Shown: positions 5,626-45,953 of the stretch, piece by piece
Layout of the letters: every line of letters begins with the position of its first letter
Numbering within the stretch: position 1 is the first letter of the stretch
Assembly (NCBI GenBank): GCA_964384235.1
Contig: CAYLJX010000002.1
Span: 4,126-68,125 of the forward strand
DNA from: an uncultured Bdellovibrionales bacterium
GTDB taxonomy: Bacteria > Patescibacteriota > Minisyncoccia > Moranbacterales > UBA1568
Length of the DNA: 64,000 bases
Direction of reading: 5' to 3'
Program-made: the position numbers and the translations under genes
The notes under the pieces: model-generated
What the model was told of the DNA's origin: nothing
Database searches by the model: none
The model's input: the letters and a program-made list of their open reading frames with translations, nothing else

Positions 5626-6285
5626 ATGAATATCCAATACTACGGGGATTATTGCTTCAAGATAAGCACCAAACCGGCCGGACGAGCGACGGAAGATGTG
5701 GTCATCTGGACCGATCCGTTGGAAAAGGGGGCCGGACTGCGATCGCCGCAGGGACAGGCCGATGTCGTGTTTTTGACGCACGGCGACAGCGAGGAGGCGA
5801 GGAACAGCCTCAAGGGTGAACCGATCGTTTTCGATGCGCCGGGCGAATACGCCGTAAAGGGTATCTCGGCTTTGGGCTTTGCGAGTTTTCGGGACGGAAA
5901 GGAAGGAGCTGAGCGCGGTCAGAATACGATATTTGTCTTCGAAAGCGAGGATATCCATGTGGCTTTTCTCGGCGCGTTAGGGCACGACCTGTCGCCTGAG
6001 CTTTTGGACAAACTGAACGGCGTGGACGTGCTCTTTATTCCGGTCGGCGGCTCGGACACTCTTTCTCCCAAGCTTGCTTCGGAATTGGCGCGCAAGATCG
6101 AGCCGAGCATCATCATCCCGATGCACTACAAGATACCGGGACTGACGCTTCCCTTGGAGAGCGAGAAATCTTTCTGTGACGCCATCGGGAGCTGTCCGCA
6201 GGGTGCCCAGTCGAAGTTCAATATCAAGAAGAAGGATTTTGAAGGGAAACAGTTGGAGATTGTATTGCTCGAACGAGGTTCGTAG
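5626..6285 (+). CDS. MBL-fold metal-dependent hydrolase (UPF0173-like)
   Basis: VVFLTHGDSEEA and HYK motifs of small MBL-fold hydrolases; 219 aa. Confidence 0.6.
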   Translation: MNIQYYGDYCFKISTKPAGRATEDVVIWTDPLEKGAGLRSPQGQADVVFLTHGDSEEARNSLKGEPIVFDAPGEYAVKGISALGFASFRDGKEGAERGQNTIFVFESEDIHVAFLGALGHDLSPELLDKLNGVDVLFIPVGGSDTLSPKLASELARKIEPSIIIPMHYKIPGLTLPLESEKSFCDAIGSCPQGAQSKFNIKKKDFEGKQLEIVLLERGS

Positions 6286-12678: not shown

Positions 12679-14799
12679 ATGTCAGACGAGAAAAAGTGGT
12701 CTCTCCAGCTGGGAGGCCGCGAACTGACCATCGCGACGGGTATGCTCGCGGGGCAGGCCAACGGTGCCGTGACGGCACGGTACGGCGATACGGTGGTCCT
12801 TGCGACCGCCGTCATGAGCAAGGGTGCCTCCAAGATCACGGGGTATTTCCCTCTCATGGTGGACTACGAGGAGCGCTACTACGCCGCGGGCAAGATCAAG
12901 GGATCGCGTTTCATCAAGCGCGAAGGCCGTCCGTCGGACGACGCCGTGCTTTCGGGCCGCGCGGTCGACCGGACGATCCGGCCGCTTTTTGACAGCCGGA
13001 TGCGTAACGAAGTGCAGGTGATCGTGACGACGCTCTCCTACGACGGCGAGAACGATCCGGATCTGGTGGCGATGATCGCGGCTTCGGCGGCGCTTACGCT
13101 CTCCGATATCCCGTGGAACGGTCCTATCGGTGCCGTGCGGGTCGGTATCCAGAACGGCGGCGACCTCGTGCTCAATCCTTCGTCAGAAGAGCGCGTTTCG
13201 AGCAGTCTCGACCTTCTGTTGTCCGGTACCAAGGACAAAATCAACATGATCGAGGCCGGTGCCAAGGAAATCCCGGAAGAAAAAATGGTAGAGGCGTTCC
13301 GCTTCGGTTTCGAGGCCATCCAGAAAATCTCCTCCTTTATCGAAGACATCCGCAAAGAAGTCGGCAAGGAAAAAGGGAAAGCGGCGATCCTGCGGGGATC
13401 CGACGAGTTCGAAACGGGAGTCCGCGAGGCGTTCGTGAGCGAAGGACTCGGCGATTCGCTGTATCTGCGTCCCAAGCAGGCTATGGAGGACAAAATGGAA
13501 GCGATCAGGGAAAAAGTATCCACTTTCGCCAAGGAAACGTTCCCGGATCAGACATCCATGGATGAGCTGTTGAGCCTCATCATGGATGAGGTGTCCGACG
13601 AGATCGTCCATGAGAACATCCTCAAGGCGGAAAAGCGCCCCGATGGCCGGAAACTGACGGAAATCCGCCCGATCTGGTGCAAAGTGGGCGTGCTTCCGCG
13701 CACCCATGGAACCGGACTCTTTACCCGTGGAGAGACACAGGCCCTTACAGTGACGACACTCGGTGCGCCCGGCGACGAGATGGTCATCGACACGATGGAA
13801 ACTGACGAAAAGAAGCGCTACATGCACTTCTACAACTTCCCGCCGTATTCGGTCGGCGAAGTGCGGCCGATGCGCGGTCCGGGCCGGCGTGAAGTCGGTC
13901 ACGGAGCGCTTGCGGAAAAGGCGCTGGTACCGGTCCTCCCGAGCAAGGAAGAGTTTCCGTACACGATCCTCCTCGTTTCCGAGGTGCTTTCTTCCAACGG
14001 TTCCTCATCGATGGCTTCGACATGCGGCTCGACACTTTCCCTCATGGATGCCGGTGTCCCCATCAAGAAGCCGGTGTCCGGTATCGCCATGGGTGTCATC
14101 ACGGGAAAGAGCGGTGAATACAAGATCCTGACCGATATCCAGGGGCTCGAAGACCACTACGGCGACATGGACTTCAAGGTGGCCGGGACCAGGGACGGTA
14201 TCACCGCCATGCAGATGGACGTGAAAATCGACGGATTGACGCCGGACATGCTCGCCGTCGCGGTAGCTCAGGCCAAGGACGCGAGACTGGAAATCCTCGA
14301 AAAGATGCTCTCGGTCATCCCCGCGCCGCGTGAGACCATGTCTCCCTATGCGCCGCGCATCATCACGCTCCATATCAATCCCGACAAGATCCGCGACGTC
14401 ATCGGCCCCGGAGGTAAGATGATCAACCAGATCATCGACGAGACCGGCGTGTCCATCGATATCGAGGATGACGGCTCGGTCTTCATCACGTCCACGGACG
14501 AGACGAGCGCCAAGGAAGCCGTGGAATGGATCCGAAACATCACCCGCGAGGTGGTGGCTGGAGAGCTCTTTCAGGGGCGGATCACCCGCATCATGAACTT
14601 CGGCGCATTCGCGGAGGTACTTCCCAACCAGGAAGGACTCATCCATATTTCGGAACTGGCCGATCACCGCGTCGAGAAAGTCGAGGATGTCGTGAAAGTC
14701 GGCGACATCGTCCCGGTCATCGTCAAGGAAATCGATTCCCAGGGTCGTATCAACCTCTCGCACAAGCAGGCGCTTCGCAAGATGAGTCAGGAGAATTGA
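12679..14799 (+). CDS. pnp: polynucleotide phosphorylase
   Basis: Two RNase PH domains plus C-terminal KH and S1 domains; 706 aa. Confidence 0.95.
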   Translation: MSDEKKWSLQLGGRELTIATGMLAGQANGAVTARYGDTVVLATAVMSKGASKITGYFPLMVDYEERYYAAGKIKGSRFIKREGRPSDDAVLSGRAVDRTIRPLFDSRMRNEVQVIVTTLSYDGENDPDLVAMIAASAALTLSDIPWNGPIGAVRVGIQNGGDLVLNPSSEERVSSSLDLLLSGTKDKINMIEAGAKEIPEEKMVEAFRFGFEAIQKISSFIEDIRKEVGKEKGKAAILRGSDEFETGVREAFVSEGLGDSLYLRPKQAMEDKMEAIREKVSTFAKETFPDQTSMDELLSLIMDEVSDEIVHENILKAEKRPDGRKLTEIRPIWCKVGVLPRTHGTGLFTRGETQALTVTTLGAPGDEMVIDTMETDEKKRYMHFYNFPPYSVGEVRPMRGPGRREVGHGALAEKALVPVLPSKEEFPYTILLVSEVLSSNGSSSMASTCGSTLSLMDAGVPIKKPVSGIAMGVITGKSGEYKILTDIQGLEDHYGDMDFKVAGTRDGITAMQMDVKIDGLTPDMLAVAVAQAKDARLEILEKMLSVIPAPRETMSPYAPRIITLHINPDKIRDVIGPGGKMINQIIDETGVSIDIEDDGSVFITSTDETSAKEAVEWIRNITREVVAGELFQGRITRIMNFGAFAEVLPNQEGLIHISELADHRVEKVEDVVKVGDIVPVIVKEIDSQGRINLSHKQALRKMSQEN

Positions 14800-14828
14800 T
14801 ACGGGAGAAAAAGTTGGTGTATACTGAA

Positions 14829-14859
14829 GGGAGAGGAGAACCTCTCCCTTTCGTTTTTT
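14829..14859 (+). terminator. intrinsic terminator after pnp
   Basis: GGGAGAGGAGAACCTCTCCC followed by TTTCGTTTTTT. Confidence 0.7.
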
Positions 14860-14886: not shown

Positions 14887-15999
14887 ATGGCGCTTTTTTC
14901 GGAGAAATCATCAGGCACTGACGGATCGATTCCGGACGATATCCTCTCGTCCGTTCGGACCATGGAGGAAGAACACGGGAAACAAAGTATGGGACAAGAC
15001 GGTTCTCCCTCGGTATCAAGATCCGTTCCGGAAAAGAAAGATGCCGGGAGCGCCGCTTCAGGGAGTCCTTTTCTGACGGGAGAAGTCCATACTCCGCCGG
15101 TGACATCCGCGCCCGCGGGTTTCGATGCACCGAAGAAGGAGACTGTTTCCCAGGAAAACCTGGTATTCACCAACCCTCCCACTCTTGCCATTCCGGATCC
15201 CCAGGCTGCTCCAAAAGTAGTTTCTCCGTCTCCGGAAGTCGTTTTTTCGAAATCGGGCAGTAAGAAATGGCTTGTGGTAGGGATTATCGTCGTCATCGTG
15301 GCCTTGTTCGGTCTCGGAGCCTATCTGTATTTCAGGAATGCTCCTTTGGAAAAGGTGATGGAGTCGGTTGTCCCGGACGGTCAATCGTCCGCCGAAACCC
15401 CTTCCGATCTTGTCGAGACTCCCGTTGTGGAACCGCCTTTCGCCTTGGACAAGCCGAACTACCTCTCTCTTGATACGGAAAGCATCTCTCTGGATGAAGG
15501 GAAAACGGTATTCGGGGAAGTGGCGGTCAAGATGCAGGCGGCCGGTATCGTTCAACCGGTGGAATTTCTCATTACGGATTCCAACAACAACCCCGTGGCT
15601 TTCAGTCGGTTCGCGTACCTGATGCATTTCGAGTTGTCTCCGGAACTGCTCGCCTTTTTGGATGAAGGGTTTTCGGTATTCGCCTTTATCGACGGCGGGA
15701 AGCTCCGTCTCGGTCTCGCTCTCACGATGAAGGATGCGACTGCGGCAGGAGCGCAGATCGTCAAGGAAGAGAGTTCTCTCCCTTCCGCGTTCCGTCCGCT
15801 GGTGCTGCTCAACGGAAGCATGGTGGGCATCAACCGGACATCGGTCTTCCGATCGGGATCGTACAACAGCGAGGCGGTCCGCTTCACCAATATCGATGCC
15901 AATCAGAATCTTTCTCTCGACTATACGCTGCGCGGGAACCGATGGTTCGTCGGAACGAGCAAGGATACGCTTCGTGCCATGCTCGATCAGACCCGATAG
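14887..15999 (+). CDS. hypothetical membrane-anchored protein
   Basis: 370 aa; Pro/Ser-rich N-region, single TM helix WLVVGIIVVIVALFGLGAYLYF, large C-terminal domain of unknown function. Confidence 0.5.
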   Translation: MALFSEKSSGTDGSIPDDILSSVRTMEEEHGKQSMGQDGSPSVSRSVPEKKDAGSAASGSPFLTGEVHTPPVTSAPAGFDAPKKETVSQENLVFTNPPTLAIPDPQAAPKVVSPSPEVVFSKSGSKKWLVVGIIVVIVALFGLGAYLYFRNAPLEKVMESVVPDGQSSAETPSDLVETPVVEPPFALDKPNYLSLDTESISLDEGKTVFGEVAVKMQAAGIVQPVEFLITDSNNNPVAFSRFAYLMHFELSPELLAFLDEGFSVFAFIDGGKLRLGLALTMKDATAAGAQIVKEESSLPSAFRPLVLLNGSMVGINRTSVFRSGSYNSEAVRFTNIDANQNLSLDYTLRGNRWFVGTSKDTLRAMLDQTR

Positions 16000-16137
16000 G
16001 ATGGCTTGGGAAAAGGATATTTCTTGGAAGAAAAAAAGTAAAATATTTTTTCAGAAGGGAGTTTTCTCGAAAAGAAAAAATATTTTCTCACAAGAAAGAA
16101 AAAATGCCGCGAATGAGAGAAAGTTGATGCACATGAA

Positions 16138-16166
16138 TTGACCCGGACGTTTTTTCCTGCTATAAT
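16138..16166 (+). promoter_or_regulatory. near-consensus sigma70 promoter TTGACC-17 nt-TATAAT with A/T-rich UP-like region upstream
   Basis: TTGACC (16138-16143), a 17-nt spacer, TATAAT (16161-16166). 16000-16130 is A/T-rich with repeated AAAATATTTT tracts. Confidence 0.55.
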
Positions 16167-16172
16167 GGATTT

Positions 16173-16765
16173 GTTAGCAGTGAATTCTTTGACAACTCGC
16201 TCCCCCAAACCGTCACGAACGGTGAAAGAGTTCCCAGTCACTATTTCCCCCTAATAGTGATGGGGACTCTTTCACTGTTCAAGTGTCTCGGCAATGTACC
16301 GGGACCGCCTCGTCCTAACACGAGGACCAAAACAAAAACAAAAAGAGGGGTTAGCTACACAGGGGATGGAAAGCCGAACGGCTTATGCCTCCTGCGTAGC
16401 TAACTACCAGCTCTCGAAAAAATAATAAATGTCGGGAGAAAAACAAAAAGAAACAAAAAATCGTTCTTTCAAAAAAACAACCAAAGGCGAAACGCCAGAG
16501 AACGGTGAAGGGAGAAGTGCTTGAAACGTTAGGACAAGCGCAACAACGCAAGTGCACAAACTACAGGCGTGACTTATGGATCATGATGCCACTCACCCGG
16601 GCTAAATGACCAGCATACCTGTTGGCACATGCAAGTTCGGGCGCTCCAGCCAAATATTTATTTTATTGGGCGCAAGGAGCGCCCGGACACCAACATCTTG
16701 AGCAGAAGATAGGAGATAGGAAGTGGGAAATGAGTGAGGAAGAGAAGGCCGAAAGGCTGTTTTTT
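16173..16765 (+). ncRNA. candidate ~590-nt non-coding RNA (class unidentified)
   Basis: Lies between the consensus promoter and the terminator GGCCGAAAGGCTG TTTTTT (16746-16764). No credible ORF. Contains several extended helices (e.g. GGTTAGCTACACAGG...CCTGCGTAGCTAACC; GGCGCTCC...GGAGCGCC) and A-rich single-stranded tracts. Confidence 0.45.
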
Positions 16766-16805
16766 GTTGCTTTTTTTGTTCATTTTTGCTTCAATAAAGG
16801 GAAAT

Positions 16806-17207
16806 ATGCTTTTTTCTCGAAAACAACCGAAGACCGTCGGGAGTCAGGGAGAGGATCTGGCTGAGCGCTACCTGAGAGACAAGGGATACCGGATTCTGGA
16901 ACGGAACTTTGCCAATCCGAAGGGGTATCGGCTGGGAGAAATCGATATCATCGCCAAACAAGGTGAAACGATCGTTTTTGTCGAGGTGAAGACGAGGCAT
17001 CGGCAGATCCGGGACGGTGACGGGATCATCCTGCCGGAGGCGGCCATCACGCCGGACAAGATGCGAAAGCTTTCCCGGATCGCCGAGTATTATCTGAGGA
17101 AGACCAGACAGCTTTCTCTCCCGTACCGTTTCGATGCCTTGGCTCTCGTCATCGATACGGACAGAAAAACGGCGAAAATACGCCATTTGGAGAGCATCTT
17201 TTTCTAG
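16806..17207 (+). CDS. yraN: YraN-family (UPF0102) endonuclease
   Basis: GEDLAERYLRDKGYRILERNF...GEIDIIAKQGETIVFVEVKTR is the typical UPF0102 restriction-endonuclease-like fold. Start at ATG 16806. Confidence 0.8.
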   Translation: MLFSRKQPKTVGSQGEDLAERYLRDKGYRILERNFANPKGYRLGEIDIIAKQGETIVFVEVKTRHRQIRDGDGIILPEAAITPDKMRKLSRIAEYYLRKTRQLSLPYRFDALALVIDTDRKTAKIRHLESIFF

Positions 17208-29416: not shown

Positions 29417-31306
29417 ATGACTTTTTTCAAAAAAAACAAAAAGAAAAATCTTTTCGTGTTTTTCTTGCTCCTCTTTATCGTGGGAGGTGTTTTGTTTTTC
29501 ATAGGGAACGATGCGGCTTTAGCTCAGGAAGCTAGTGGAGCACCAGAGGGGGACTCCTCTTGGATAGGAGACAAGGTAACCATTCTTTTCAAGGCGATAT
29601 TTTACGGGGTTTTCGTAGCGTTCGGATATCTGACCTCTCTCGCAGTAACCATCTTTGGTTGGGCTGTCAAACCGGAATTCATCTCCGGAAACACGGGGTT
29701 TCTCAACCGGGCGGCGATTTACGATCTTTGGAAATTCATCCGTGACTTCTTCAACCTGTTCTTCATCATCGTACTTCTTTACACGGCCTTCACTATCGTC
29801 TTCCAAGTGGCCAAGGATTACAAGAAAGCGCTCCTCAATCTCGTCATCATGGCGCTTCTGGTGAACTTCAGTTTCCCTATTTCGCGCTTCATCATCGACA
29901 CCGCCAATGTCCCGATGTATTTTTTCATCAATCAGGCCATGCCAAGTAACAAGGGAGAGGAGGCTTTCGGGACGATTCTCAGCGCATCGAAGATTCAGGA
30001 TATCCTCATCCCCGGGTATAGTTCCGGCAATGGGTGGGATTATGTCAAACAGGACAGCGTGTATTTCAGCTACCTCATCATAGCGATCATCTTCATGTTC
30101 CTTTTTTCCATATCGCTTCTGGTCCTGGCAGTAATGCTCGTCGTTCGTCTCATTGCGCTCGTCATCCTGGTGATCTTCTCCTCGGTCGGGTTCGCGGCGA
30201 CGATCATGCCCGGCTTCGACAAGTACGCCAAGATGTGGTGGGACAACCTGCTCAAGTACGCCTTCTTCGGTCCGGCCGCCATGCTCATGATGCTCATCGC
30301 GGTACGGTTCCTCGGGGCGATGCGGGAGGATGCCACATACAGCAATATCAAAAGTGTGGCGCTCAATAATGCCAGTTCGGCCGATTATATCGCCTCCATG
30401 GCGCTTTTCAGTATTCCGATCATCCTCATTTGGTTCTCTATCGGTCTCGCGCAGCAGTTCTCCATCGCCGGCGCGAGCATGGTCACTGGTAGGGGGAAGC
30501 AGTACGGAAAGTGGCTTGCGAAAAAGACATACAATAATCCATTGACGAATAATGCTTGGACAAGGGGAACTGCCTCCGGTCTGAAAGAGCGTGCTGAGAG
30601 CAATAAGTATGTCAAGTGGGTCATGCCGAAGACGTATTCCGATTTGAGCAAGAAGAAAGAGGAACAATATAAGGGATATGCATCCGGCGGAGCTACCGGA
30701 AAGGCAAGGGTTATCGAGAATCAACACAACAAGAAGGTGGCGGAGAAAGAGAAGGGGATGGATGAACTTCGCATAAGCGAGTCCCAGATGAAGCAAATGA
30801 TCGACCCGGCCAATAGTGGTAAATATAGTGCGGCGGAAAAGGAGGCCGCAGTGAATCTCTTGAATAAGAAAGAGAAGTTCGGCAATGCCGGCGAACTGCA
30901 TAACGCCGTCGAGGCGATCAAGGCTGCCAACAAGAACGAAAGCGCCCAGAAGGAAAAGATCACCGAACTCCTTAAGAAGGTAAAGGGTGATGGTCTCGAT
31001 GGTATGAGTGTGGCGCAGTATGACAATATCGCGAACCTTGGTCCGGAAATGAAGAAGGAGCTTGATAAGAAGCTGAAGAAAGAAGGAAAAACAAATGTGC
31101 TCGTTGAAGTCGAGATGAGAACTCCGGGCGCGAATCGTGCACAAATTGTCGGAGATATGCTTAAGGGGATGAAGACGGAGGATGTCGCGAAGCAAGATCT
31201 CTTTAAGGCAGGTAGTCCGAATAAGGCAGAAGCGGATGCTTGGCTCAGTTATGTCCGTACTCAGAACCCGGAGCGTTATCAGAAAATCAAGGCAGACCTT
31301 CCATAA
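29417..31306 (+). CDS. VirB6/TrbL-like polytopic membrane protein with long K/E-rich C-terminal extension
   Basis: Signal peptide, about 6 TM helices with an N-terminal extracytoplasmic region, hydrophilic coiled C-terminus; first gene of a T4SS-like cluster. Confidence 0.5.
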   Translation: MTFFKKNKKKNLFVFFLLLFIVGGVLFFIGNDAALAQEASGAPEGDSSWIGDKVTILFKAIFYGVFVAFGYLTSLAVTIFGWAVKPEFISGNTGFLNRAAIYDLWKFIRDFFNLFFIIVLLYTAFTIVFQVAKDYKKALLNLVIMALLVNFSFPISRFIIDTANVPMYFFINQAMPSNKGEEAFGTILSASKIQDILIPGYSSGNGWDYVKQDSVYFSYLIIAIIFMFLFSISLLVLAVMLVVRLIALVILVIFSSVGFAATIMPGFDKYAKMWWDNLLKYAFFGPAAMLMMLIAVRFLGAMREDATYSNIKSVALNNASSADYIASMALFSIPIILIWFSIGLAQQFSIAGASMVTGRGKQYGKWLAKKTYNNPLTNNAWTRGTASGLKERAESNKYVKWVMPKTYSDLSKKKEEQYKGYASGGATGKARVIENQHNKKVAEKEKGMDELRISESQMKQMIDPANSGKYSAAEKEAAVNLLNKKEKFGNAGELHNAVEAIKAANKNESAQKEKITELLKKVKGDGLDGMSVAQYDNIANLGPEMKKELDKKLKKEGKTNVLVEVEMRTPGANRAQIVGDMLKGMKTEDVAKQDLFKAGSPNKAEADAWLSYVRTQNPERYQKIKADLP

Positions 31307-39760: not shown

Positions 39761-39842
39761 TGGGTAGGGAGAGACTCGAACTCTCATGGATTGCTCCGCT
39801 AGCTCCTAAGGCTAGTGCGTATACCAATTCCGCCACCTACCC
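39761..39842 (-). tRNA. tRNA-Leu(TAG)
   Basis: Minus-strand GGGTAGG TG GCGG..ACGC A CTAGC CTTAGGA GCTAG (anticodon loop CUUAGGA, anticodon UAG); variable arm; T-arm GAGAG TTCGAGT CTCTC; acceptor CCTACCC A. CCA not encoded. Confidence 0.75.
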
Positions 39843-40165: not shown

Positions 40166-40201
40166 AAGATTCCAAAAAAGCCCCTTTCAGGGCTTGTCTT
40201 G

Positions 40202-40272
40202 TCGGAGTGCCGAGAATCGAACTCGGATTACACGCACCCGAAGCGTGCGTAATACCATTATACCACACTCCG
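40202..40272 (-). tRNA. tRNA-Pro(CGG)
   Basis: Minus-strand CGGAGTG ... CACGC TTCGGGT GCGTG (anticodon CGG, U33, G37) ... CCGAG TTCGATT CTCGG CACTCCG A. 3-bp D-stem; CCA not encoded. Confidence 0.75.
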
Positions 40273-40375
40273 ATATTTGATTGCTGATTTTTGGATTGCA
40301 GATTTCAGATTGAAAATCTGGTCTGGATTTTGTATCCGTATCCCGATTCTGCAATCATCAATCTCCAATCTGCAA

Positions 40376-45656: not shown

Positions 45657-45745
45657 TGGCGGAAAGGGAGAGATTCGAACTCTCGATACCGTTTCCGGTA
45701 TGCCGCTTTTCGAGAGCGGTGCCTTCAACCACTCGGCCACCTTTC
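45657..45745 (-). tRNA. tRNA-Ser(CGA)
   Basis: Minus-strand GGAAAGG TG GCCGAGTGGTTGAAGGC A CCGCT CTCGAAA AGCGG (anticodon CGA); long variable arm; GAGAG TTCGAAT CTCTC CCTTTCC G CCA (CCA encoded). Confidence 0.8.
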
Positions 45746-45953
45746 CGTACTGATCAGCCAAGGCTGATCGAAAAAACTGTCGGCCTCGTGCTTCCGGGGT
45801 TTCCATCGAAACCCGCACGGTGTTCGCTTGCTCACACCGTGCCCACTCGGCCACTTCTCCATATGACGAGATGATTGTATACGAAAACGCTTTATTGTAC
45901 AATAGAAACACCTTGGAATCTTTCGGAACAAACAAAAAATTAACCTTTCGTGT

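Follow-up and report, generated by a model that had tools for sequence, protein, structure and literature searches.

Within a 64-kb stretch of contig CAYLJX010000002.1 (hereafter the window), whose host is a Moranbacteria-like bacterium of the candidate phyla radiation (CPR, or Patescibacteria), we found a gene for a structured noncoding RNA (ncRNA) of about 590 nt, lying between the gene of a 370-residue protein (p370) and yraN, and compared it with about 9 to 16 kb of sequence from each of its relatives. The predicted gene combines a conserved structure with its own promoter and terminator and has no conserved reading frame. We give a probability of about 0.65 to the reading that this stand-alone gene specifies a large, compactly folded, trans-acting ncRNA of an undescribed family that would serve as an abundant structural scaffold or assembly. 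The original prediction, made from the letters of this DNA without database searches, had suggested a lineage-specific large ncRNA, and conservation, covariation, and the absence of a matching Rfam family support that suggestion. As far as sampled, the family is confined to Moranbacteria-like Patescibacteria.

The comparative covariation check proposed for this RNA was run and came out strongly positive. Folded on the + strand, the window RNA has a minimum free energy of -226.2 kcal/mol (z = -9.35 against shuffles, versus z = -5.14 for the - strand), which agrees with the long helices originally noticed. Guided by RNAalifold and by reading of the alignment, we built a model of 117 pairs in 22 helix segments and counted its pairs on a plain MAFFT alignment of 61 sequences (A2) made independently of any structure. 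On A2, 87.4% of the cells hold standard pairs, compared to 36 to 43% when the 3' partners are slid by one to three columns, and compensatory changes, on both sides of the pair, occur at 85 of the 117 pairs; none of 500 shuffles reaches any of the observed measures. The column pairs with the highest mutual information nearly all belong to this model. Since many conserved pairs are G.U and would be C.A mismatches if read on the other strand, we assign the RNA to the + strand. For the 3' domain, RNAalifold gives 27 pairs, 21 of them compensatory. A covariance model of this domain built from genome-derived sequences (R1; 157 positions and 41 bp) recovers unseen metagenome members of a divergent group, D, at 83 to 100 bits and those of groups B and E at 21 to 23 bits. 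The R1 matches have pairs in 91.6% of cells and compensatory changes at 36 of the 41 pairs, values that come from an alignment fitted to the model and are therefore biased toward it.

The predicted fold (Table 1) consists of a 5' half, with H1, H2, H3, two single-stranded A-tracts, H5, and H6, and a 3' domain, with H8 to H13. Over the 27 pairs scored in H1, 91.3% of cells are paired and 19 pairs are compensatory; its tip stem covaries, CACAAUU/AAUUGUG becoming CGCGAUU/AUUCGCG, beneath an invariant apical loop, UCCCCCU (16246-16252). Two candidate roles for this loop were rejected: pairing inside the RNA, for example with GGGAG of X2, shows no covariation, and members with an altered loop keep the same X2; a function as anti-Shine-Dalgarno mimic is unsupported, Shine-Dalgarno-like motifs being rare in this genome. 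Mutual information finds no covarying partner for the 5' block UUUGACAA. H6 is paired in 97.7% and 99.5% of cells and yields little covariation evidence because it is almost invariant. In the 3' domain, the strand CCAACA is 92.9% paired with UGUUGG over 6 pairs, 3 of them compensatory (for example, CCAGC/GCUGG in L037 and L054), suggesting a modestly supported pseudoknot that would compete with part of H8 and H9.

Table 1. Coordinates of the RNA gene, its elements, and its adjacent genes in the window
Feature	Position	Strand	Remarks
p370 gene	14887-15999	+	370 aa; directly upstream of the RNA
A/T-rich UP-like region	16000-16137	+	two copies of palindrome AAAATATTTT
Predicted sigma-70-type promoter	16138-16166	+	-35 TTGACC (16138-16143), 17-nt T-rich spacer, extended -10 TGc (16158-16160), -10 TATAAT (16161-16166)
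RNA gene	16173-16765	+	~590 nt (593-nt RNA); both ends predicted
Conserved 5' block CUUUGACAAC	16187-16196	+	apparently single-stranded; several positions at least 90% conserved in A2
H1 hairpin	16217-16280	+	~28 bp; outer strands X1 (16217-16230) and X1' (16267-16280)
H2 hairpin	16285-16305	+	7 bp; 89.5% paired; 7 of 7 pairs compensatory
H3 hairpin	16308-16325	+	loop UCCUAAC (16313-16319) pairs with H7 loop
A-rich tract 1, AAAACAAAAACAAAAAG	16329-16345	+	most positions invariant in 61 sequences
Optional hairpin module	16348-16406	+	at this site only in the window, L001, L036, and L060
H5 hairpin	16411-16438	+	A-rich loop; 6 of 6 pairs compensatory; 59.5% paired, MAFFT alignment shaky there
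A-rich tract 2, AAAAACAAAAAGAAACAAAAAAU	16439-16461	+	conserved in A2
H6	16462-16504	+	(C)GUUCUUU (segment Y) with AGAGAAC(G); encloses A-rich internal loop and GGC-loop-GCC hairpin (16486-16496)
X2, GAACGGUGAAGGGAG	16500-16514	+	near copy of X1; alternative partner of X1'
H7 hairpin	16517-16541	+	loop GUUAGGA (16528-16534) pairs with H3 loop
First arm of 3' domain	16548-16632	+	H8 to H12, including H10, H11, and H12
H8	16548-16555/16625-16632	+	3' domain
H9	16563-16567/16618-16622	+	3' domain
Invariant loop CUCACCCG	16592-16599	+	within first arm of 3' domain
H13	16635-16688	+	GC-rich; inner GCCAA/UUGGGC stem, AU-rich loop; 99.2% paired, 9 of 10 pairs compensatory
CCAACA	16690-16695	+	candidate pseudoknot strand; partner UGUUGG (16620-16625)
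Variable purine-rich tail	16696-16746	+	poorly conserved in A2
Intrinsic-terminator-like hairpin	16747-16765	+	GGCC-GAAA-GGCU stem-loop, then U6; 4 bp, weak here
yraN (UPF0102)	16806-17207	+	Pfam E = 3e-25; first gene of downstream block, outside the RNA

Both A-rich tracts that had been noticed in the window are nearly invariant across the 61 members, and the motif occurs in the window far above chance (0 expected). A third A-tract-like match, at 29433, lies in the Lys-rich N terminus of a 629-aa open reading frame (ORF) and was set aside. In the divergent loci L144 (~4900-4300, minus strand), L098, and L176, (A5-7 N) repeats lengthen the tracts to over 70 nt; in L144 it is tract 2 that has grown, to over 70 nt of (A5N)n. 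In L059, a run of N at ~5640-5670, which marks an assembly gap, falls inside the RNA at A-tract 2, and such low-complexity tracts may break assemblies at the RNA. The optional hairpin module (GUUAGCUACACAGG...CCUGCGUAGCUAAC) has two insertion points across members, after A-tract 1 or within the H6 internal loop (the latter in L007, L009, L023, L029, L031, and L033, at A2 columns ~575 to 640). It is absent from most members, and no second copy is found within the window.

Two further pairings reach across the molecule. The loops of H3 and H7 are predicted to form a covarying helix that ties the two halves of the RNA together: 6 of its 7 pairs are kept in 98 to 100% of the 61 sequences, and the two most variable pairs (CG in 36 and UA in 25 sequences; AU in 37 and GC in 22) show the alternate in over a third of them. 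The two loops change together, as in CCUAAC/GUUAGG, UCUGAC/GUCAGA, UCCGAC/GUCGGA, UUCUAAGC/GCUUAGAA, and UUCUGGU/ACCAGAA. Moreover, X1' appears to keep two evolutionarily maintained alternative partners, the nearby X1 and, about 230 nt downstream, X2. The 13 pairs of X1':X2 are paired in 95.2% of A2 cells, against 40 to 64% for slid controls, and 7 of them are compensatory; the duplex energies in the window are -20.0 kcal/mol for X1:X1' and -17.2 kcal/mol for X1':X2. The X1/X1'/X2 triplets change together in five divergent groups, with different triplets in groups A, B, D, and E, for example GGUACUCACG / CGUGAGUACU / GGUACUUCAC in L072, ...GGCAGAAGAA / UUCUUCUGCUGU / ACAGCGGAAGAA in group B, and GCCAAUGAG / CUCAUUGGCUUCCCCAU / GUGGGGAGGUUAGUGA in group D. 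Because X1':X2 overlaps H1 and H6, these pairings are mutually exclusive within one molecule.

The RNA is most simply read as an independent transcription unit with its own conserved promoter and terminator, and the boundaries named in the original prediction stand. The TTGACC-17-TATAAT promoter lies where it was proposed, with 11 of 12 matches to consensus and an extended -10. A promoter scan over 4 kb returns three promoter-like sites against 2.0 +/- 1.5 in shuffles, a score that by itself is within chance; we judge the promoter to be real because it is conserved, TTGAC(C/T)-17-TGcTATAAT preceding the homologous RNA in ~56 of the 61 aligned relatives (consensus ATTGACc..g..g..ttTTTTcTGCTATAAT). 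The upstream region is A/T-rich as described (GC 0.345 over 16000-16199, versus 0.55 to 0.60 in the flanking genes) and is partly conserved in the closest relative, L001, where the second AAAATATTTT copy is retained. In the window, the two copies of this palindrome (16040-16049 and 16077-16086) are 37 nt apart upstream of the -35 element and together make a 13-nt perfect inverted repeat; the pair may serve as an operator, as an UP or curvature element, or as the p370 terminator. Transcription would start about 7 nt past the -10 element and end in the U-run. The GAAA hairpin with T-run put forward as the 3' end is present, and it is missing from our terminator scan list because its stem has 4 bp, where the scan rule asks for 5 bp; among relatives, the position of the 3'-end hairpin plus U7 is conserved and its stem covaries. 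The view that these ~590 nt hold no credible ORF was likewise borne out: no ORF of at least 30 aa is conserved across the 61 homologues, L034 has none at all of that size, and the 80-aa ORF at 16622-16864 in the window runs through the terminator. The identification of yraN directly downstream also proved correct.

Homologues of this RNA occupy one place in the genomes of its lineage. A scan with the p370 alignment, taking one genome per GTDB species, gave 78 Moranbacteria-type loci, and nhmmer, queried with the window RNA, matches 71 of 79 genome loci, each homologue lying on the same strand, 150 to 250 nt past the p370 stop codon; the 8 loci with no match include several contigs that end at or shortly after the p370 gene. 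A metagenome scan with a 21-nt pattern of the H1 tip returned 118 loci, of which 115 have the whole RNA at the same place, and the other three matches (L101, L163, and L179) have no further similarity and are put down to chance. A shorter form is present in all three added genomes (L213-L215, one of them a 1.3-Mb contig), which were found via PNPase homologues of group B. The divergent groups among the metagenome loci include B (for example, L099, L144, and L151), C (L098 and L176), and D (for example, L129, L147, and L173). Identity to the window RNA ranges from 88% in L001 down to 54%, with a median of 69%, and the length is about 430 to 640 nt among relatives. Within the window, a profile of the 61 homologues has a sole nhmmer match, at 16154-16784 (E = 1.7e-139), making the RNA single-copy there. 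L001, a Logan contig, carries the same promoter, a p370 57% identical, and a PNPase fragment 95% identical.

The local gene order in the window is pnp, p370, the RNA, yraN, a dksA/traR-like gene, lspA, and comM. Directly after pnp stands a strong 11-bp terminator-like hairpin with a U-run (14826-14851), and a promoter-like site precedes p370 (14796-14825). The yraN block is not downstream of the RNA in L001, L021, L077, L151, L168, and L213-L215: the next gene in L001 is a different one on the opposite strand, and in L151, L168, and L213-L215 a convergent Ile-tRNA-synthetase-like gene takes its place. These latter lineages have PSP1, tsf, and rpsB ahead of pnp. A p370-like gene remains upstream on the same strand throughout the loci examined, including in group B and L213-L215, where other neighbors have changed (hmmsearch E of 1e-6 to 1e-12). 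Upstream of the RNA in group C is a 509-aa gene with no detectable homology to p370.

The protein p370 itself belongs to a lineage-specific family. Its 51 homologues are all CPR sequences from metagenomes or metagenome-assembled genomes, and the named ones are Moranbacteria. It has no Pfam match. The AlphaFold2 (AF2) model predicts a disordered N-terminal stretch of 125 residues, one transmembrane (TM) helix (126-151), and a C-terminal alpha/beta domain, with pLDDT above 90 for residues 190-370. Compared with the PDB by Foldseek, this model has no match at E <= 0.001 and shows at most a weak DcrB/PknH-sensor-like resemblance. The N terminus carries two conserved motifs, IPxExLxAVRxMxDD and SPFL.

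Taken as the scaffold we favor, the RNA would be abundant, to judge from promoter quality and conservation, and would act in trans within a ribonucleoprotein (RNP) or an RNA-only assembly. The invariant unpaired UCCCCCU loop, the CUCACCCG loop, the 5' block, and the A-tracts may be the contact surfaces for its partners. The exchange between X1' and X2 could mean that the molecule switches between two folds, that it re-pairs once the long perfect H1 duplex has been cut, or that an intermolecular helix joins copies of the RNA, three options that covariation cannot separate. In every test we could apply, the RNA comes out as a family not described before, within the loosely defined group of large ornate bacterial RNAs, and our searches of a paper library turned up no report of a large ncRNA from Moranbacteria or CPR. 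A bolder version, in which a new ornate RNA class is universal in Moranbacteria-like CPR and H3/H7 and X1'/X2 act between molecules to build a homo-oligomer or a two-state machine, is possible but doubtful.

The nearest known parallels are OLE, ROOL, and GOLLD. OLE (RF01071), the ornate large extremophilic RNA of Firmicutes, is also ~600 nt long, has many conserved helices and conserved unpaired nucleotides, is found in one bacterial lineage, lies beside a membrane-protein gene, and is, as we presume here, highly abundant; it comes from another phylum, however, and matches our RNA in neither sequence nor structure. ROOL and GOLLD are likewise large and heavily structured, and H3/H7 and X1':X2 are candidates for the kind of intermolecular contact that cryo-electron microscopy (cryo-EM) shows for OLE, ROOL, and GOLLD (PMC12286853). 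In contrast to ROOL and GOLLD, which are often phage- or tRNA-associated and patchy in distribution, our RNA is chromosomal, single-copy, lineage-universal, not found in viral contigs by the pattern tried, and without an Rfam match. Membrane localization and dimers are features of OLE, as homo-oligomeric cages are of ROOL and GOLLD.

Several points weigh against the scaffold reading. The transcript, its ends, and its abundance are deduced from the DNA sequence, and the idea of a scaffold or oligomer draws on analogy with the RNAs of PMC12286853. The missing Rfam match carries less weight in CPR than it would elsewhere, since the diverged RNase P RNAs of these bacteria escape default thresholds (PMC8172020). 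No partner emerged from the analysis. The p370 model lacks an RNA-binding fold, its folded domain appears to be extracytoplasmic, and the conserved adjacency of p370 and the RNA could be plain synteny.

An alternative that we consider unlikely is that the RNA is a regulatory sponge, whose single-stranded (A4-5N)n tracts titrate an S1-, Hfq-, or KH-type protein or the 30S subunit in the manner of CrcZ or CsrB, the folds serving to present the tracts. As in CrcZ and CsrB, conserved single-stranded motifs, here A-rich, stand between hairpins. They are nearly invariant; groups B, C, and D carry additional copies, and some members, such as L144, have longer ones. Shine-Dalgarno motifs are rare in this genome (GGAG or GAGG precede 3 of the 47 longest window ORFs, and many upstream regions are A-rich, with start codons roughly placed), so ribosomes may recognize A-rich unstructured leaders. 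There is also a weak, nonsignificant CrcZ match on tract 2 (9.9 bits). However, most members have only two tracts, while classic sponges have many repeated sites, and the tracts follow a ~6-nt period instead of AAnAAnAA or GGA. A sponge would leave unexplained about 400 nt of covarying, pseudoknotted structure, a large folded core, and the other invariant loops, and no candidate binding protein was identified. Similarly, the C-rich apical loop on the covarying H1 stem recalls RsaE and RoxS, where this arrangement serves G-rich targets, and RsaE gives a weak match on H1 in L077 (29.6 bits, E = 0.72), but our RNA is about six times larger, Shine-Dalgarno-like, G-rich targets are rare here, and no target turned up.

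Still less probable is a membrane-associated RNP of the RNA with p370, modeled on OLE and OapA. Even where PNPase and/or the yraN block is replaced, the gene immediately upstream, on the same strand, is p370-like, and the ~600-nt size and lineage restriction resemble those of OLE (PMC3413148). Against this, p370 and OapA are unrelated as far as tested (no Pfam and no fold match), and neither the AF2 model nor the Foldseek search against the PDB reveals an RNA-binding fold, for which reason p370 was rejected as an RNA-binding partner. The confident domain (190-370) follows the TM helix and, in the model, weakly resembles extracytoplasmic sensor or lipoprotein domains; what precedes the helix is predicted to be disordered. 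The adjacency breaks down in group C, at least as detectable homology, and elsewhere may be inherited synteny.

A housekeeping RNA that has diverged strongly, with RNase P RNA as the foremost possibility, is a poor candidate, although its general features fit: like RNase P RNA (RF00010/RF00011), this RNA is lineage-universal, strongly conserved, pseudoknotted, several hundred nucleotides long, and driven by a strong, stable-RNA-type promoter. Moreover, 10 of 35 circular CPR genomes had an RNase P RNA that was missed at default thresholds (Lui et al. 2021; PMC8172020). The original prediction had found no match to transfer-messenger RNA (tmRNA) or RNase P and had named an Rfam hit as an outcome that would count against a new family; the scans gave none. 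At gathering thresholds, Rfam 15 matches neither the RNA of the window nor that of 16 relatives. Permissive searches (E <= 10 on 15900-16900 and on the L215 RNA, E <= 1 on the whole window, and E <= 5 on 7 divergent loci) find no RNase P RNA, whereas RF00010, with its thresholds lowered, does recover the diverged CPR forms (PMC8172020). On the RNA itself, the permissive searches return only chance miRNA-type matches on hairpins and weak nonsignificant ones, and none to OLE, ROOL, GOLLD, raiA, or HEARO. The tmRNA, signal recognition particle (SRP) RNA, and 6S RNA also have no Rfam match, at gathering or permissive settings, in the window, the divergent loci, or L215, and ARAGORN finds three tRNAs and no tmRNA in the 64 kb. 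The RNA matches of Rfam and ARAGORN in the window are tRNA Pro-CGG (40170-40276), Leu-TAG (39761-39842), and Ser-CGA (45657-45746); rRNA and the RNAs of RNase P, tmRNA, and SRP were not detected there with these tools. A tmRNA has a tRNA-like domain (acceptor stem, T-arm, and 3' CCA) and a tag reading frame, a 6S RNA is a ~180-nt rod with a central bubble, and SRP RNA has a domain IV motif; H1, unlike 6S RNA, is a continuous duplex with no central bubble.

The local resemblance to RNase P motifs in the wrong order, noted at the outset, is real but comes from short strings. The P4/J11-12-like strings CCCGGGCU (16596-16603), AGUUCGGG (16634-16641), and GGUGAAAG fall inside the covariation-supported helices H12, H13, and H1 and thus provide no evidence for RNase P. 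The P4-like pair stands in reversed order inside H12 and H13, which are 89 to 99% paired with compensatory changes, and a P4-like pairing of 16596-16603 with 16634-16641 was rejected, since both strands sit in covarying local helices. A P4 helix flanked by the GGAAAGUCC and ACAGAAnCCGGCUUA consensus is not found in the RNA, nor is a CR-I/CR-V consensus, and RNase P has nothing that corresponds to the UCCCCCU loop or the A-tracts.

A cis-acting leader or attenuator for yraN, the dksA-like gene, lspA, and comM, with X1'/X2 as its switch, is very improbable. In most loci, yraN starts 40 to 150 nt past the terminator on the same strand; in the window that terminator is weak and no strong yraN promoter is seen in 16766-16805, and mutually exclusive helices are typical of attenuators. 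However, the RNA persists in loci with a different or a convergent gene downstream, and therefore is not a yraN leader: it is 88% identical in L001 before a gene on the opposite strand, and it is retained in L021 and L077, which lack the yraN block, and before the convergent synthetase-like gene in L151, L168, and L213-L215. In addition, the switch elements precede the terminator by 250 to 500 nt and have no complementarity to it, and the size and 3' domain far exceed those of known leaders. Weakest of all, with a negligible probability, is a locus for small protein(s) or a mobile or repeat element: several 30- to 80-aa ORFs in the window copy (one of 34 to 42 aa recurs in ~18 of 61 homologues), near-perfect long hairpins like those of miniature inverted-repeat transposable elements, and a module found at two sites are outweighed by the lack of any family-wide ORF and by stem substitutions that are compensatory rather than synonymous, so that the RNA is not protein-coding, and by a single copy at a fixed syntenic position in ~190 loci and absence from viral contigs for the pattern tried (GTTCTTTN{8,38}CCAGAGAAYGGT; 15 matches, none fitting the family profile and all put down to chance), so that it is not mobile.

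The scaffold-type, trans-acting RNA remains our preferred reading. CPR bacteria have minimal genomes and are mostly uncultivated, and the Moranbacteria-like ones have ~1-Mb genomes with almost no spare DNA. An ncRNA gene of 0.4 to 0.6 kb with a top-strength promoter that is kept at one locus lineage-wide argues for an important function. To our knowledge, few large bacterial RNAs of intricate fold exist besides rRNA, RNase P, tmRNA, and introns, and OLE, GOLLD, ROOL, raiA, and HEARO each opened new biochemistry or structural biology. With ~190 natural variants, a well-supported secondary structure, a clear tertiary contact, and an uncommon set of two mutually exclusive helices that evolution has preserved, the family can be used at once for structure probing, cryo-EM, and metatranscriptome mining, and it provides a model for annotating a region that is now blank in Moranbacteria genomes. 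If the version with intermolecular helices is true, the OLE/ROOL/GOLLD phenomenon would extend to a chromosomal, lineage-essential RNA.

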